Under the pieces are notes generated by a model that saw only the letters and a list, made by a program, of their open reading frames with translations, was not told the origin of the DNA and ran no database searches. A stretch of DNA of 64,000 nucleotides from a phage, in sequence record PZ452584.1. The stretch is one strand, 5' to 3'. The position numbers were made by a program, and so were the translations under genes. Of the stretch, positions 1 through 47,867 are shown piece by piece. Numbering within the stretch: position 1 is the stretch's first letter; each line of letters starts with the position of its first letter.

Positions 1-1836
<1,836 letters not shown>

Positions 1837-1864
1837 TATTAAAGCATATTAAAGAGGATTAAAA

Positions 1865-3844
1865 ATGACTTTATTATCTCCGGGCATTGAGCTCAAAGAA
1901 ACTACGGTTCAAAGCACCGTGGTTAATAACTCTACTGGTACAGCAGCTTTGGCCGGTAAATTCCAGTGGGGTCCTGCTTTTCAGATTAAACAGGTTACAA
2001 ATGAAGTAGATTTAGTTAATACTTTTGGTCAACCAACCGCTGAAACTGCTGACTATTTTATGTCTGCGATGAATTTCTTGCAGTACGGAAATGACTTACG
2101 AGTAGTTCGTGCTGTTGATAGAGATACCGCTAAAAACTCATCTCCGATTGCCGGTAATATTGAATACACAATTTCTACCCCAGGTAGTAACTACGCAGTT
2201 GGAGATAAAATCACGGTCAAATATGTTTCAGATGCTATTGAAACTGAAGGTAAAATTACTGAAGTAGACACAGATGGAAAAATTAAGAAAATTAATATTC
2301 CTACTGCAAAAATTATCGCTAAAGCTAAAGAAGTCGGTGAATATCCAACACTAGGTTCTAACTGGACTGCGGAAATTTCTTCATCTTCCTCTGGTTTAGC
2401 TGCAGTAATAACCCTTGGAAAAATTATTACTGATTCTGGTATTTTATTAGCTGAAATTGAAAATGCTGAAGCTGCTATGACAGCGGTTGACTTTCAAGCA
2501 AATCTTAAAAAATACGGAATTCCAGGAGTAGTAGCGCTTTATCCAGGCGAATTAGGCGATAAAATTGAAATTGAAATCGTATCTAAAGCTGACTATGCAA
2601 AAGGAGCTTCTGCATTACTCCCAATTTATCCAGGTGGTGGTACTCGTGCATCTACTGCCAAAGCAGTGTTTGGATATGGACCACAAACTGATTCACAGTA
2701 TGCTATTATAGTTCGTCGTAATGATGCTATTGTTCAAAGCGTTGTTCTTTCAACTAAGCGCGGTGAAAAAGATATTTACGATAGTAACATCTATATCGAT
2801 GACTTTTTCGCAAAAGGCGGCTCAGAATATATTTTTGCAACTGCACAAAACTGGCCAGAAGGCTTCTCTGGAATTTTAACTCTGTCTGGTGGATTATCAT
2901 CAAATGCTGAAGTAACAGCAGGAGATTTGATGGAAGCTTGGGACTTCTTTGCTGACCGTGAATCTGTTGACGTTCAACTGTTTATTGCAGGTTCTTGTGC
3001 CGGTGAATCTTTAGAAACAGCATCTACTGTCCAAAAACACGTCGTTTCAATTGGGGATGCTCGCCAGGATTGCTTAGTATTGTGCTCACCACCGCGTGAA
3101 ACTGTAGTTGGAATTCCTGTAACTCGTGCTGTTGATAACTTAGTCAATTGGAGAACTGCGGCAGGTTCATACACTGATAATAACTTTAATATCAGTTCAA
3201 CCTACGCAGCAATCGACGGTAACTACAAATATCAGTATGACAAATATAATGATGTGAATCGTTGGGTTCCATTAGCAGCTGATATTGCTGGTTTATGTGC
3301 AAGAACTGATAACGTATCTCAGACTTGGATGTCACCAGCTGGTTATAATCGTGGCCAGATTCTTAACGTTATTAAACTTGCTATTGAAACTCGCCAAGCT
3401 CAGCGCGACCGTTTATACCAAGAAGCTATCAACCCGGTAACCGGTACAGGTGGTGATGGTTACGTATTGTATGGTGATAAAACAGCTACTTCTGTTCCTT
3501 CTCCATTTGATCGTATTAACGTTCGTCGTCTGTTTAATATGTTGAAAACGAACATAGGACGTAGTTCAAAATATCGTTTGTTCGAATTAAACAATGCGTT
3601 TACTCGTTCATCATTCCGCACAGAAACTGCCCAATACTTACAGGGAATTAAAGCTCTCGGTGGAATTTATGAATATCGTGTAGTTTGCGATACAACAAAT
3701 AACACTCCGTCAGTAATTGATAGAAATGAGTTTGTTGCAACATTCTACATCCAACCTGCGCGCAGTATAAATTATATTACTTTGAATTTCGTCGCAACTG
3801 CTACTGGTGCAGATTTCGATGAGTTAACTGGTCTTGCAGGTTAA
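1865..3844 (+). CDS. 18: Contractile tail sheath protein
   Basis: 659 aa, same length as T4 gp18; position after 17; late promoter upstream. Confidence 0.96.
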   Translation: MTLLSPGIELKETTVQSTVVNNSTGTAALAGKFQWGPAFQIKQVTNEVDLVNTFGQPTAETADYFMSAMNFLQYGNDLRVVRAVDRDTAKNSSPIAGNIEYTISTPGSNYAVGDKITVKYVSDAIETEGKITEVDTDGKIKKINIPTAKIIAKAKEVGEYPTLGSNWTAEISSSSSGLAAVITLGKIITDSGILLAEIENAEAAMTAVDFQANLKKYGIPGVVALYPGELGDKIEIEIVSKADYAKGASALLPIYPGGGTRASTAKAVFGYGPQTDSQYAIIVRRNDAIVQSVVLSTKRGEKDIYDSNIYIDDFFAKGGSEYIFATAQNWPEGFSGILTLSGGLSSNAEVTAGDLMEAWDFFADRESVDVQLFIAGSCAGESLETASTVQKHVVSIGDARQDCLVLCSPPRETVVGIPVTRAVDNLVNWRTAAGSYTDNNFNISSTYAAIDGNYKYQYDKYNDVNRWVPLAADIAGLCARTDNVSQTWMSPAGYNRGQILNVIKLAIETRQAQRDRLYQEAINPVTGTGGDGYVLYGDKTATSVPSPFDRINVRRLFNMLKTNIGRSSKYRLFELNNAFTRSSFRTETAQYLQGIKALGGIYEYRVVCDTTNNTPSVIDRNEFVATFYIQPARSINYITLNFVATATGADFDELTGLAG

Positions 3845-41956: not shown

Positions 41957-43135
41957 TTAAAAGTATTTTTTAAAACTCATCATAACTTTATCATCAACAT
42001 CATTATCAATCTGTGCAACAAGGTAAGATGACAGTTCTACTTCTTGTGGCGCGGATTGAACATTATCAGAATTAAGATATTCACGAATCCAAGGATATGG
42101 ATGTTTAACCGGAGCATCGGTAATTGGGCATGGAAGACCACACTGTTTCATACGAGATACAGTTAAGTAATCAATAAAGCTCCACATGCTATTTGTATTT
42201 AATCCAGGAACATCGCCATCTTTAAATAAATGAACTGCCCAATCTTTTTCTTGGCGGTTAACTTCCATGAAAATATCAACTGCTTCTTGTTCACACTCTT
42301 GAGCAATTTTAACCCATTCATCACCATCAGTGCCAAGTTGAAGTTGACGAATAATATATTGTGTGCCTTTAAGGTGAAGCTGTTCATCACGTGCAATGAA
42401 CTTCATAATCTTGGCATTACCTTCCATGATTTCCATGTTCTTATGGAAGTTAAAGGTACATGCGAAAGATACATAAAAACGAATAGCTTCCAATGCGTTG
42501 ATTACATGCAAACAGAGGTAAAGAGATTTCATTAAAGCACGTTTAGCTTCGGCTTCTTGTTTAATAGCTCTGTTTAAACGAAAGTCGGCATCAGGAGATT
42601 CTTTAGCTAGTTCTACAAATTCTTTAGCATTTTCCCATTCACGGGTTTTAATCAGAACATCATCATAATAACGTCCAATTGATTCAGCACGTTTCATAAT
42701 AGCTTCATCTAATACAATCTCATCAAATACCTTTGACGGATCAGTATAAAGATTTCGCATGATATGAGTATATGAACGACTATGAATAGTTTCACTAAAA
42801 GTCCATGTAGCAACCCATGTATCAAGGCTTGGGTCTGAAATTAATGACATAAGTACAGCAGACGGCGCACGACCCTGAATGCTATCCAAAAGTGATTGAT
42901 ACTTCAGATTATTAGTAAAAATATTCTGCTGATACTGAGGAAGCTTATTAAACTGTGCAGCATCCATCATTAAGTTTACTTCTTCCGGGCGCCAGAAAAA
43001 TGATAAGGACTTTTCTGTGAGTTCTTCAAATACTCGATGCCGTTGAATATCATAACGCGCAATACCAAGACCTGAACCAAAAAACATAGGTTCTTTTAAA
43101 ACATCAACTGGGTTTGTATTAAAAACTGTGCTCAT
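41957..43135 (-). CDS. nrdB: Ribonucleotide reductase beta subunit, uninterrupted
   Basis: 392 aa continuous ORF; no intron. Confidence 0.95.
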   Translation of the reverse strand: MSTVFNTNPVDVLKEPMFFGSGLGIARYDIQRHRVFEELTEKSLSFFWRPEEVNLMMDAAQFNKLPQYQQNIFTNNLKYQSLLDSIQGRAPSAVLMSLISDPSLDTWVATWTFSETIHSRSYTHIMRNLYTDPSKVFDEIVLDEAIMKRAESIGRYYDDVLIKTREWENAKEFVELAKESPDADFRLNRAIKQEAEAKRALMKSLYLCLHVINALEAIRFYVSFACTFNFHKNMEIMEGNAKIMKFIARDEQLHLKGTQYIIRQLQLGTDGDEWVKIAQECEQEAVDIFMEVNRQEKDWAVHLFKDGDVPGLNTNSMWSFIDYLTVSRMKQCGLPCPITDAPVKHPYPWIREYLNSDNVQSAPQEVELSSYLVAQIDNDVDDKVMMSFKKYF

Positions 43136-43186
43136 AAATTTTCCGCTTAGTTAATAGTTAGTGACTCGTCCGTGAGTCAAATTATA

Positions 43187-45451
43187 TCATAATTTACAGG
43201 ATGAACAATCTTCAGCTTTTGGAGTTTCTATTTCATAATCATCAGTACCAGAACCATCACGGGTATTATGATAATAGAAATTTTTAATGCCATAATACCA
43301 TCCGTATAGCATATCATCAATCATTATTGACATTGGAACCTTTCCTTTTGGAAAAATCTGTGGGTCATAATATGTATTCGCCGAAGCTGATTGACATACC
43401 CATTTCAGCATAATAGCTACCTGCGTAAGATAAGGTTTATTACCTTTCTTAGCTAATTTCCATGTATAATCATATAGGTCTATGTTATGTTCAATATTGG
43501 GCACGACTTGATTAAAGGAACCCTCTTTTGATTCTTTAACAGAGACTGGTCCACGTGGAGGCTCGATACCGTTTGTACTGTTAGAAACTTGGGAAGATGA
43601 CTCACATGGCATAAGTGCTGATAGTGTGCTATTACGGATGCCAAAGAGCTTAAGGTCTTCCCGCAGCGACGACCAGTCACAAACGTATTTTGGAGCTGCG
43701 ATTTGGTCAATCTTTTTATTGTACCAGTCGATAGGTAATTCGCCTCGAGACCAACGAGTGTCTGAATAATATTCGCAAGGTCCTTTTTCTTTGGCGAGCT
43801 TAATGGATGCTTTAATGAGTCCATACTGTAATCTCTCAAATAGTTCATGTGTTAAATCGTTAGCATCTTCATAAGAAGCAAAGTTACTTGCCAGCCAAGC
43901 TGCATAGTTAGTAACACCTACACCAAGGTTACGACGCTTTTTAGCTTTTTCTGCTTCAGGAACTGGATATCCTTGGTAATCCAAAAGATTATCAAGAGCA
44001 CGAACTTGAACTTCTGCCAATTCATTAATTTTATCTTGGTCTTGCCAATCGAAGTTATCCAACACAAATGCAGATAACGTGCACAATCCAATTTCAGCAT
44101 CAGGGCTATTCACATCATTTGTTGGAATAGCAATTTCACAACACAAGTTACTCTGACGAATAGGTGCCTTTTCACGAATAAACGGAGTATAGTTATTCGT
44201 ATTATCAATGAACTGCACATAAATCCTTGCTGTTCCTGAGCGTTCAGTCATGAGCAATTCAAATAGTTCACGGGCTTTAATACGCTTTTTACGAATATTA
44301 GGGTCTTTTTCTGCTGCTTCGTATAATTCACGGAAACGGTCTTGGTCTTTAAAATAAGAATAATAAAGCTCACCACCCATTTCATGCGGACTGAACAAAG
44401 TAATGTAATCATTCTTTCCGAATCGTTCCATCATCAAATCATTCAGCTGAACACCATAATCCATATGACGAATGCGGTTTTCTTCTACGCCTTTGTTATT
44501 TTTCAAAACGAGAAGATTTTCAACTTCCAAATGCCAAATAGGATAATAAGCAGTAGCAGCGCCGCCACGAATTCCACCCTGTGAACATGATTTAACTGCG
44601 GTCTGAAAATGTTTCCAAAAAGGAATAACACCAGTATGGCGTACTTCACCCATGCCAATCTTAGAACCTTCGGCACGAATCATACCAACGTTAATACCAA
44701 TTCCAGCGCGTTTAGAGATATATTCAACAATTGAAGCGGAAGCCTTATTGATAGACTTTAATGAATCACCTGCCTCAATAACAACGCATGAACTAAACTG
44801 TCGAGTCGGAGTACGACAACCAGCCATAATAGGAGTTGGCAATGAAATCTGTCGAGTAGATACTGCTTCATAAAAACGGATAACATGTTTTAATCTATCA
44901 ACAGGTTCATCTTGATGCAGTGCCATTCCAATAGTCATAAATGCAAACTGTGGAGTTTCATAAATTTGACCAGTGGTTTTATCTTTGACTAGATATTTTT
45001 CTTTTAATTGCATCGCCCCGGAATAAGTAAATTCCATATCCCGCTCGTGCTTAATTTTTGATTCTAAAAATGTAATTTCTTCTGCTGAATATTTTGACAA
45101 TAATTCAGGGTCATATTTACCTTCATTTACACAGTAAGAAATATGGTCAATAAATGAACGTGGTTCATACTGCCCATAAACATGCTTACGAAGAGCAAAC
45201 ATTAAACAGCGTGCAGCTACATATTGATAATCAGGTTCTTCAACCGAAATAGAATTCGCAGCGGCCTTAATGACAATAGTCTGAATATCATCAGTTGTCA
45301 TTCCATCACGGAGATATGATTTAATATTTTCATATAATTCATAAGGATCTACTGATGTTCCCTCAGCTGCCCAAGATAAAACTTTAATAATTTTTTGTGG
45401 ATCAAAGCTCTGAGAAACACCACTACTTTTGATAACATTAATTAATTGCAT
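43187..45451 (-). CDS. nrdA: Ribonucleotide reductase alpha subunit
   Basis: 754 aa; class I RNR large subunit. Confidence 0.96.
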   Translation of the reverse strand: MQLINVIKSSGVSQSFDPQKIIKVLSWAAEGTSVDPYELYENIKSYLRDGMTTDDIQTIVIKAAANSISVEEPDYQYVAARCLMFALRKHVYGQYEPRSFIDHISYCVNEGKYDPELLSKYSAEEITFLESKIKHERDMEFTYSGAMQLKEKYLVKDKTTGQIYETPQFAFMTIGMALHQDEPVDRLKHVIRFYEAVSTRQISLPTPIMAGCRTPTRQFSSCVVIEAGDSLKSINKASASIVEYISKRAGIGINVGMIRAEGSKIGMGEVRHTGVIPFWKHFQTAVKSCSQGGIRGGAATAYYPIWHLEVENLLVLKNNKGVEENRIRHMDYGVQLNDLMMERFGKNDYITLFSPHEMGGELYYSYFKDQDRFRELYEAAEKDPNIRKKRIKARELFELLMTERSGTARIYVQFIDNTNNYTPFIREKAPIRQSNLCCEIAIPTNDVNSPDAEIGLCTLSAFVLDNFDWQDQDKINELAEVQVRALDNLLDYQGYPVPEAEKAKKRRNLGVGVTNYAAWLASNFASYEDANDLTHELFERLQYGLIKASIKLAKEKGPCEYYSDTRWSRGELPIDWYNKKIDQIAAPKYVCDWSSLREDLKLFGIRNSTLSALMPCESSSQVSNSTNGIEPPRGPVSVKESKEGSFNQVVPNIEHNIDLYDYTWKLAKKGNKPYLTQVAIMLKWVCQSASANTYYDPQIFPKGKVPMSIMIDDMLYGWYYGIKNFYYHNTRDGSGTDDYEIETPKAEDCSSCKL

Positions 45452-45768
45452 AAGTCCTCAACTTGAAAATCGTCTTTAAACAATCGGTTAACTATATGAG
45501 CTATTATATCACCATGACACGGCTTTGGTTTACATGTGCATCCTAGCCTCATTCCACGTAAAGGCTCTAAATGTGCTTTAGTTATTTCTCCGGATTTAAT
45601 TCGACGTATAAAATCTTTTTTGAATAATTCAATGGCAGCCTCCCGGCTGCCAGCATCTTTACCGACGTAATTTCCCCAAAATGTACCACGGTGAATATTA
45701 ACATCAAAGTCGGATTTATATTTATTCACTACCTGGCATAGACGGCCCGCGCGGCGATAATTCGTCAT
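45442..45768 (-). CDS. Hypothetical Cys/His-motif protein
   Basis: 108 aa; [13 protein letters not shown] cluster. Confidence 0.6.
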
Positions 45769-45997
45769 ATTGTTTTTCCGTTAAAACAGTAATATCATAG
45801 TAACAATCTGAAGAAGTTTTAACTGTAGAAATTTTATTATCAAAATACTCACGAGTCATTTTATGAGTATAATATTTTTTGCCATAAATGATAATAGGCT
45901 GATTTGGTCCTGGAACTTCTAACTCGCTTGGATTAGGAAGTGTAAAAAGAACTACACCAGAAGTATCTTTAAATCGTAAAATCATATATCCTCGCAA
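45722..45997 (-). CDS. Hypothetical protein
   Basis: 91 aa; overlaps next ORF by 47 nt. Confidence 0.5.
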
Positions 45998-46008
45998 TTA
46001 AATTAAAA

Positions 46009-46869
46009 TTATACCGCCATTTTTCCTTTCAAGACACCGTAGGACTGATAATCTTTGAGAACGAAATCTTTAGGCCTGAGTTTAAGAACATATTCCAATT
46101 GTTCTTTAGTAGAAAGATAACGGAATTTATAAGGCAATCCGCCTATTACCAGTTCACAAAGCTCTTTAGGTTCACGACGCAAAATTTCTTTGCATTGTTC
46201 TACATGATTCATATAGATATGAGTATTACCACCAGAAAATATCAAATCTCCTGGAGTAAGATTACACATCTTAGCTATAATATGAACTAACGCAGCATAT
46301 GATGCAATATTAAATGGAAGGCCGAGAAAAACATCTACTGATCGTTGATACCACTGCAAATCCAAATAGCCATTACGCACATTAAACTGATAGAACATAT
46401 GACAAGGCGGTAATGCCATCTGCTTGATTTCAGCTGGATTCCATGCTGAAACGATTTGACGTCGATCAGTTGGTAATTTTTTAATACGATCAATAACTTC
46501 TACAATTTGGTCTACACCGCCAAAATCACGCCACTGTTTTCCATAAATTGGACCAAGTTCACCGCTATGGTATCCTAAATCTTTTGCTTGATTTTCGTAA
46601 TTTTCATCCCAGACTGTTTTGCCTTGGATTAACGAATCATGCTGAATTAATCGTAAATCATTGACATTTGTGCTTCCTGATAAAAACCATATTAACTCAG
46701 CAATGCAAGCTTTCCAAGCGAGCTTTTTAGTTGTTACCGCAGGAAAACCTTTAGTTAAATCCCAACGCAATTTAGTACCGAACAAAGCAATTGTTCCTGT
46801 GCCTGTTCGGTCATCGGTTTCATAACCATTTTCAAAAATGTCTTTAATTAAATCTTGGTATTGTTTCAT
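46009..46869 (-). CDS. td: Thymidylate synthase, uninterrupted
   Basis: 286 aa continuous; active-site LPPCH present; no intron. Confidence 0.95.
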   Translation of the reverse strand: MKQYQDLIKDIFENGYETDDRTGTGTIALFGTKLRWDLTKGFPAVTTKKLAWKACIAELIWFLSGSTNVNDLRLIQHDSLIQGKTVWDENYENQAKDLGYHSGELGPIYGKQWRDFGGVDQIVEVIDRIKKLPTDRRQIVSAWNPAEIKQMALPPCHMFYQFNVRNGYLDLQWYQRSVDVFLGLPFNIASYAALVHIIAKMCNLTPGDLIFSGGNTHIYMNHVEQCKEILRREPKELCELVIGGLPYKFRYLSTKEQLEYVLKLRPKDFVLKDYQSYGVLKGKMAV

Positions 46870-46914: not shown

Positions 46915-47274
46915 TCAATACGGTTTAGCATCAAATTTTCTCTCAATTTCAGGTGTGAAATATAATTCTTTACCGCGTTTGGAAAAGCGACCAATAATAT
47001 GATAATTATTCTCATCAAACGTAATATTACCAATATCCATAGCTTTCAACCAAATATCGATATTTCTATCCAGCTTTATGTCAAAATTCCAATACGGAGA
47101 ACTATTACCAAAAATACTACAAGCGGATTCAGTGAAACAGCTACTATAAATCTTGTCTTTAGGAACTACTAATTGATAGACACCTTTAATAAACTGAGGA
47201 CCTTGCCATTTTGGCTGTTTCGCGTCTTTTTCTAATAGAATAGGATAATAATTAAAATTCATATTTTCCGCCAC
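46915..47274 (-). CDS. Hypothetical protein inserted between frd and td
   Basis: 119 aa ORF; not expected between frd and td in T4. Confidence 0.6.
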   Translation of the reverse strand: MAENMNFNYYPILLEKDAKQPKWQGPQFIKGVYQLVVPKDKIYSSCFTESACSIFGNSSPYWNFDIKLDRNIDIWLKAMDIGNITFDENNYHIIGRFSKRGKELYFTPEIERKFDAKPY

Positions 47275-47282
47275 GCGTTATT

Positions 47283-47867
<585 letters not shown>

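Follow-up and report, generated by a model that had tools for sequence, protein, structure and literature searches.

Gene nrdA.1 of T4, the best-studied phage, has long been annotated and never been characterised; it codes for a protein of about 100 residues which contains an invariant Cys/His centre. The gene, its family (Pfam DUF4326) and the motif are already catalogued, and a computational prediction of the function is already published. Burroughs and Aravind reportedly combined RapZ-C, DUF488 and DUF4326 into one clade in 2023 and placed it in the rhodanese-phosphatase superfamily, and the Aravind laboratory is said to have predicted a cysteine-dependent enzyme that acts on phosphorylated ribose, as present in nucleotides, ADP-ribose derivatives or nucleic-acid ends. 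Our literature search found no experimental paper on NrdA.1 or DUF4326, and the DUF488 family is likewise uncharacterised. The structurally closest solved protein appears to be the C-terminal domain (CTD) of RapZ (PDB 5o5s; PF22740), whose pocket for malonate or sulfate is built from three side chains (H190, H252 and R253) and from the backbone at T248 and G249, and thus from the loop C247-T-G-G-K-H-R together with an N-P-H motif (PMC5737377). Here, we report on the nrdA.1 gene present in a 64,000-nucleotide stretch of phage DNA (sequence record PZ452584.1; the entire stretch is called the window in the following), which represents a genome segment of a Tequatrovirus (T4-type phage). The invariant Cys/His cluster of its product probably forms the active site of an enzyme.

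NrdA.1 as a DUF4326 protein with an invariant Cys/His cluster

The nrdA.1 gene is located on the minus strand at 45442-45768, as an open reading frame (ORF) which starts with ATG and codes for 108 amino acids plus a stop codon. An initial annotation of the window, made from the nucleotide sequence, had drawn attention to this ORF and the Cys/His peptide encoded by it, and both were confirmed by checking the codons by hand. The ORF is a real gene and corresponds to nrdA.1 as annotated in T4 and in phage AR1; its product is 96% identical to T4 NrdA.1 (NP_049846) and differs from it at residues 5-7 and 12. Searching with hidden Markov models (HMM) assigned NrdA.1 to Pfam family DUF4326 (PF14216) with 77.5 bits (E 1.3e-21), compared to a gathering cut-off of 25 bits, with residues 12-90 covering positions 2-81 of the 82 positions of the model as a single domain. 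The protein also matches PHROG 464, which is listed with 'unknown function' (E 1.2e-48), and neither NrdA.1 nor the product of the neighbouring gene nrdA.2 has a match in NCBIfam or PADLOC. By tblastn, nrdA.1 matches were obtained in 1958 of 50,697 GenBank phage records (~4%), and 2555 representatives of a library clustered at 50% matched at E<=0.001.

The cluster is contained in the signature loop G76-C77-T-C79-K-P81-K-P-C84-H85-G86-D87, which is predicted to serve as the active site or to hold a ligand and is encoded at 45508-45543 on the minus strand. The codons, read directly from 45543 to 45508, are GGA TGC ACA TGT AAA CCA AAG CCG TGT CAT GGT GAT. The arrangement first described as C-x-C-x5-C-H is therefore present as a cluster, but its second spacing is x4, i.e. 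C77-x-C79-x-P81-x2-C84-H85-G86-D87. Conservation was mainly assessed in an alignment of 153 DUF4326 domains from 149 representatives with a mutual identity of at most 50%. C77, C84 and H85 are each retained in 151/153 of these domains and C79 and P81 in 149/153, followed by D87 (143/153) and G86 (141/153). A second motif, R27-G-T-F-W-G32-N33 (45670-45690, minus strand; family consensus R-G-S-x-W-G-N-P), is a candidate for contacting a phosphate or another anion; its residues R27, G32 and N33 occur in 140, 141 and 147 of the 153 domains, respectively, and R42 occurs in 131. The same columns were invariant in two further alignments, one of 105 sequences (A2) and one of 57 multidomain proteins (A5). 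Among 31 close homologues, C11, C77, C79, P81, C84, H85 and G86 are invariant; the conservation of C11, as well as that of C107, is confined to T4-like phages. NrdA.1 carries the complete DUF4326 signature (G32-N33 plus C77, C79, P81, C84, H85, G86 and D87), followed at position 34 by a Tyr which is shared by other Tequatrovirus homologues, whereas the family usually has Pro. We also scanned IMG/VR with a degenerate DNA pattern coding for just G-C-x-C-x-P-x2-C-H-G-D, which resulted in 120 loci including giant-virus bins; an ORF matching the DUF4326 HMM was present in 118 of them. Because the Cys/His positions are conserved, the cluster represents a functional site, as had been suspected initially. 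Two roles had been considered for it at that stage, namely metal binding and catalysis by Cys and His, and the homology speaks for a catalytic or ligand-binding function.

Predicted structure and related families

Modelling NrdA.1 with AlphaFold resulted in a predicted local distance difference test score (pLDDT) of 76.6 with the 31 close homologues as input and of 89.8 with the diverse 105-sequence alignment, the latter with a predicted template modelling score (pTM) of 0.82. The model contains a strand at residues 12-15, short strand elements at 22-28 and helices at 42-59 and 64-70. Its C-terminal part consists of a strand (74-77), a loop (78-84) and two helices (85-96 and 103-106). C77 ends the core strand, C79 and P81 are positioned on the loop, and C84 and H85 are found at the N-terminus of the helix. 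The predicted model thereby displays a trait of the rhodanese-phosphatase superfamily, namely a Cys at the end of a core strand which is followed by a loop and a helix. A structure search of the model against the PDB with Foldseek retrieved nothing at E<1.9, and searching the PDB by sequence, using either the protein or the family profile, yielded only noise.

Aligning DUF4326 to DUF488 (PF04343 / PF22751) by hhalign gave an E-value of 8.5e-5 and a probability of 60% over 58 columns, with the motifs in register; the support from this value is only moderate because the DUF488 alignment, which was built from one locus where DUF488 neighbours DUF4326, had a low diversity. Both families share the core L-x-C-...-K-P-x-x-C-H with a subsequent helix, and LGC77T-C79KP81KPC84H85GD of DUF4326 is paired with LLC-SEHKP-HHC-H-RR of DUF488. 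C77, P81, C84 and H85 have direct counterparts in DUF488, whereas C79 is specific to DUF4326. DUF488 contains Glu/His at this place, its loop is longer by one residue, and it continues with Arg after the C-H (C-H-R-R), where DUF4326 has G-D. NrdA.1 itself did not match the Pfam model of DUF488.

The hhalign comparison of DUF4326 with RapZ-C was not significant, whether run with a single sequence, with a 100-sequence alignment (E 0.17) or in global mode; this non-significant alignment sets N33 on N188 of the RapZ N-P-H190 motif. Judged by the predicted fold, the signature loop of NrdA.1 appears to correspond to the anion-binding C-T-G-G-K-H-R loop of RapZ-CTD. The C-x5-R signature of Cys-dependent phosphatases and rhodaneses, such as protein tyrosine phosphatases (PTP), dual-specificity phosphatases (DSP), PTEN and Cdc25, is absent from NrdA.1, as C77-TCKPKPC-H85-G86-D87 does not contain any Arg, and C79-x5-H85 alone mimics its spacing. 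Finally, NrdA.1 did not match the Pfam model of NADAR / YbiA (PF08719; PDB 8bau, 2b3w), the likeness to which is weak and may be limited to local topology. To our knowledge, NADAR enzymes are not Cys-dependent.

Domain fusions and gene neighbourhood

We surveyed the 57 DUF4326 representatives which are longer than 135 aa for additional domains. DUF4326 was found fused to mSLOG in nine members, to YAcAr-SLOG in seven, to NADAR in four (plus one DarT1-associated NADAR), to DprA-like domains in three and to TIR in one. This pattern independently matches the one reported by the Aravind laboratory, and according to the EVADES preprint, the anti-Avs protein ORF83 has homologues in giant viruses which carry a C-terminal DUF4326. 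Some proteins contain two or three DUF4326 domains in tandem, such as P0063 (352 aa) and P0087 (305 aa), and one giant-virus contig (L016, 639-2430) contains two individual DUF4326 genes at a distance of ~1.4 kb.

The 156 immediate same-strand neighbours of DUF4326 genes are heterogeneous and do not include any constant operon partner. Even the commonest ones (Pif1 helicase, DUF488 and dCMP deaminase) were encountered only twice each, and RtcB, RNA ligase, HAD_SAK_2, Metallophos, exonucleases, single-stranded DNA-binding protein (SSB), ribonucleotide reductase (RNR) and thioredoxin are single-case neighbours. The DUF488 gene is located directly upstream of the DUF4326 gene in two phage or prophage loci, L026 and L100. 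The former (300-1977, minus strand) belongs to the Pantoea agglomerans provirus IMGVR_UViG_2871755987_000002 and comprises an operon of DuOB (dual OB fold), DUF488 and mSLOG::DUF4326 beside a terminase gene. Its DuOB and DUF488 products match the PADLOC candidate defence system PDC-M45 (A and C), and the mSLOG-DUF4326 protein is without a PADLOC match. Through this operon, DUF4326 is connected to a candidate system for defence or for the processing of nucleic acids. The same pair of DUF488 and mSLOG::DUF4326 is present at 822-1921 of L100.

Possible functions of NrdA.1

We give about an even chance to NrdA.1 being a small cysteine-dependent enzyme which acts on phosphorylated ribose. As a stand-alone DUF4326 domain of small size and alpha/beta type, it would belong to the RapZ-C / DUF488 / DUF4326 branch, and in the model its C77 loop is placed between core strand and helix, where rhodanese and PTP enzymes hold their catalytic Cys loop and RapZ-CTD its anion pocket. 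C77, the equivalent of the nucleophile of the superfamily, would provide the nucleophilic or acid-base centre with the aid of C84 and H85 as a second dyad, and R27, N33 and R42 may hold the phosphate or the nucleotide. As substrate, we infer a phosphorylated ribose which would be part of a nucleotide, of a small molecule derived from nicotinamide adenine dinucleotide (NAD) or ADP-ribose, or of the end of a nucleic acid. T4 would produce the protein early, from a gene which shares its transcript with td and nrdA and is coupled to them in translation. A more specific proposal regards NrdA.1 as a Cys-dependent phosphoesterase or transferase on ribose-linked phosphates which is used by T4-type phages in counter-defence, either by destroying or re-routing an immune signal derived from NAD or ADP-ribose or by repairing a nucleic-acid end modified by the host. 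This proposal appears unlikely to us; it names the DuOB-DUF488 system PDC-M45 as a possible host system, and PDC-M45 operons themselves carry a DUF4326 gene. If true, it would provide a function for a domain encoded by thousands of phages and giant viruses.

Alternatively, the cluster might be a Cys3His metal site for zinc or, less likely, an iron-sulfur centre, serving as a structural staple of the strand-loop-helix unit or as a catalytic metal, with the cysteines acting as ligands instead of nucleophiles. C77, C79, C84 and H85 indeed amount to four near-invariant ligand-type residues within nine positions, and the invariant P81 together with the frequent P83 points to a rigid knuckle instead of an anion cradle rich in NH groups. 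A loop devoid of Arg keeps this option alive, the aligned DUF488 stretch C-S-E-H-K-P-H-H-C-H-R is also rich in metal ligands, and domains as small as this one (~85 residues) often need a metal. However, the adjacent placement of C84 and H85 at the N-terminus of a helix is an uncommon geometry for two ligands of the same ion, the equivalent loop of RapZ-CTD is a binding site for an anion, not for a metal, and the AlphaFold model of the domain is confident and shows a normal alpha/beta secondary structure. Moreover, RapZ has kept just the first Cys and the His of the DUF4326 cluster, which argues that the ancestral role of the loop was not that of a four-ligand metal site. Taken together, we regard a metal site as the main alternative, although a rather unlikely one. 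RapZ-CTD, apparently the closest solved fold, also offers a different precedent, because it serves as an adaptor for RNA and has a pocket for a ligand at the corresponding loop. NrdA.1 may accordingly bind or sense a sugar phosphate, a nucleotide or RNA without catalysis and act by sequestration or as an adaptor, and phage 'sponge' proteins of similar size exist. We consider this quite improbable, since three Cys, one His and one Asp hardly vary between very divergent viruses, bacteria and giant viruses, which is more typical of chemistry than of binding, and since the tandem repeats and the fusions to enzymatic domains suggest a catalytic module.

The location of the gene was considered as another indication of its function. 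In T4-type phages, nrdA.1 is translationally contiguous with nrdA, as would suit an accessory protein of the phage complex for RNR and deoxynucleoside triphosphate synthesis, e.g. a thiol-disulfide relay or a maturation factor which employs its cysteines in redox chemistry. In Kanagawavirus, td, nrdA.1 and nrdA follow each other with touching stop and start codons, as do nrdA.1 and nrdA in Acinetobacter phage Acj61, and Klebsiella phage KM2 contains a DUF4326 gene after nrdB. A DUF4326 gene is even found between nrdD and a presumed activase gene in the unrelated jumbo Asteriusvirus BF17, an Escherichia phage (L003, 2983-3315), which apparently represents an RNR association independent of the T4 lineage. 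The presumed activase gene of BF17 has a length of 471 nt and is also labelled as anaerobic RNR. Yet an RNR relative of class I or III was present within three genes on either side in just four of 118 diverse viral loci, and some of these four are clearly T4-like; these values were obtained by phmmer with T4-type NrdA and NrdB and the BF17 anaerobic reductase as queries, a screen which probably missed class II RNRs. Apart from these cases, the heterogeneity of the immediate neighbours speaks against such a role, and so do the fusions, which involve SLOG, NADAR and TIR and never RNR or thioredoxin-type domains. The labels 'ribonucleotide reductase NrdA-like' or 'RNR alpha subunit' given to DUF4326 proteins in PHROGs and GenBank (PHROG 24867; L008, 3010-3315; L009, 2857-3267) appear to be the propagated gene name nrdA.1 and not to reflect homology to NrdA. 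Because a class I or III RNR was detected close by in only 4/118 loci, an RNR accessory function was rejected as a family-wide property. The linkage was seen only in Straboviridae and Asteriusvirus and is regarded here as a lineage-specific gene position, not a property of the family, and for NrdA.1 itself we hold an accessory role in RNR to be highly improbable.

Whether or not it acts as a cysteine-dependent enzyme on phosphorylated ribose, NrdA.1 of T4 offers access to a family which occurs in phages and giant viruses and is repeatedly fused to domains binding or cleaving nucleotides of the NAD/ADP-ribose type. A function found for it in T4 could hold for all of DUF4326 and could show whether the family takes part in the arms race around NAD and ADP-ribose.

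Gene order, start sites and overlaps

Between 45300 and 46100, the window shares 98-99.4% identity with Shigella phage ESh25, with the Escherichia phages AR1 and RB3 and with some 490 further records. According to the ORF list and the annotations of AR1 and other near-identical relatives, the genes around nrdA.1 are all encoded on the minus strand in the order frd (47283-47864), an ORF of 119 aa (46915-47274), the intron-less td coding for thymidylate synthase (46009-46869), nrdA.2 (45722-45985), nrdA.1, nrdA coding for the large subunit of RNR (43187-45451) and nrdB (41957-43135). The initial annotation had placed nrdA.1 immediately downstream of td; nrdA.2 intervenes, so nrdA.1 is the second gene after td. 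The 87-aa product of nrdA.2 matches DUF5496 over positions 1-87 of 87 (Pfam, E 1.8e-59) as well as PHROG 2458. Searching both strands of the entire 64 kb with Rfam revealed neither a group I intron nor any other RNA element, and a scan for promoters and terminators resulted only in background levels.

The nrdA.1 gene overlaps with both of its neighbours. The overlap of 47 nt which had been noticed initially is genuine and also present in T4 and AR1, but the partner is the upstream gene nrdA.2, whose last 15 codons and stop codon share positions 45722-45768 with codons 1-16 of nrdA.1. A second overlap of 10 nt (45442-45451) connects the 3' end of nrdA.1 with the start codon region of nrdA, and this junction is found in T4 and AR1 as well. 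Doubts about the start sites raised by the longer overlap could be settled. Between M1 and C11, the reading frame of NrdA.1 does not offer any further ATG, GTG or TTG, and starting at the GTG of V14 would be too late: residues 11-13 would be lost, including C11, which is invariant in T4-like homologues, and V13, which is conserved family-wide, and the strand 12-15, modelled at a pLDDT of ~97, would be cut. This leaves the ATG at 45768 as the sole start which can be used and means that the overlap is real. This ATG and the sequence upstream of it are identical in T4, AR1 and the window. Its Shine-Dalgarno sequence is weak (GGA, 8 nt upstream), and residues 1-10 form a leader of low model confidence (block pLDDT 61); homologues from other genera begin two to three residues ahead of C11, as M-K-x-C-R-V-V-N-K-Y. 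The start codon of nrdA.2 is the ATG at 45985, which is preceded by GAGGA and results in a match to DUF5496 from end to end. Assuming a start at the TTG at 45997 is unnecessary, since the full-length DUF5496 domain is already obtained from this ATG.

Within the longer overlap, AR1 differs from the window by two bases, which are synonymous in NrdA.2 and change R5 and R6 of NrdA.1 to His, and T4 NrdA.1 carries S-S-V in the stretch of residues 5-7. Because these changes are silent for nrdA.2 but not for NrdA.1, the constraint within the overlap appears, from comparing the sequences, to act on the frame of nrdA.2, at least as far as residue ~10 of NrdA.1. The overlap also includes an unusually GC-rich run (CGCCGCGCGGGCCG), with a local GC content of 0.447 vs. 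~0.33 nearby. Kanagawavirus IME523 does not contain nrdA.2, and its genes td, nrdA.1 and nrdA merely abut by sharing stop and start bases; therefore, the 47-nt overlap of Tequatrovirus appears to be a side effect of the nrdA.2 insertion. Phage Acj61 contains a different small ORF in the position of nrdA.2, which itself looks like an insertion in the Tequatrovirus lineage.

Compared to T4, the window differs in the vicinity of nrdA.1. The frd and td genes of T4 overlap directly, whereas the window contains the 119-aa ORF between them, which may be an inserted accessory gene. This ORF has no Pfam match and is annotated in AR1 as hypothetical protein ar1_242, 'best matched to T6'. T4 further carries introns with I-TevI and I-TevIII in td and nrdB, as well as mobE/nrdB.1 between nrdA and nrdB. 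The window is without these elements: td and nrdB are uninterrupted, and nrdA adjoins nrdB with positions 43136-43186 between them. In contrast, nrdA.1 does not show any material difference. The gene is likewise 327 nt long in T4 (142671-142997), where it occupies the same position between the same neighbours with the same overlaps of 47 and 10 nt, and the gene layout of the window, with its 47-nt overlap, is identical to the one annotated for T4 and AR1.

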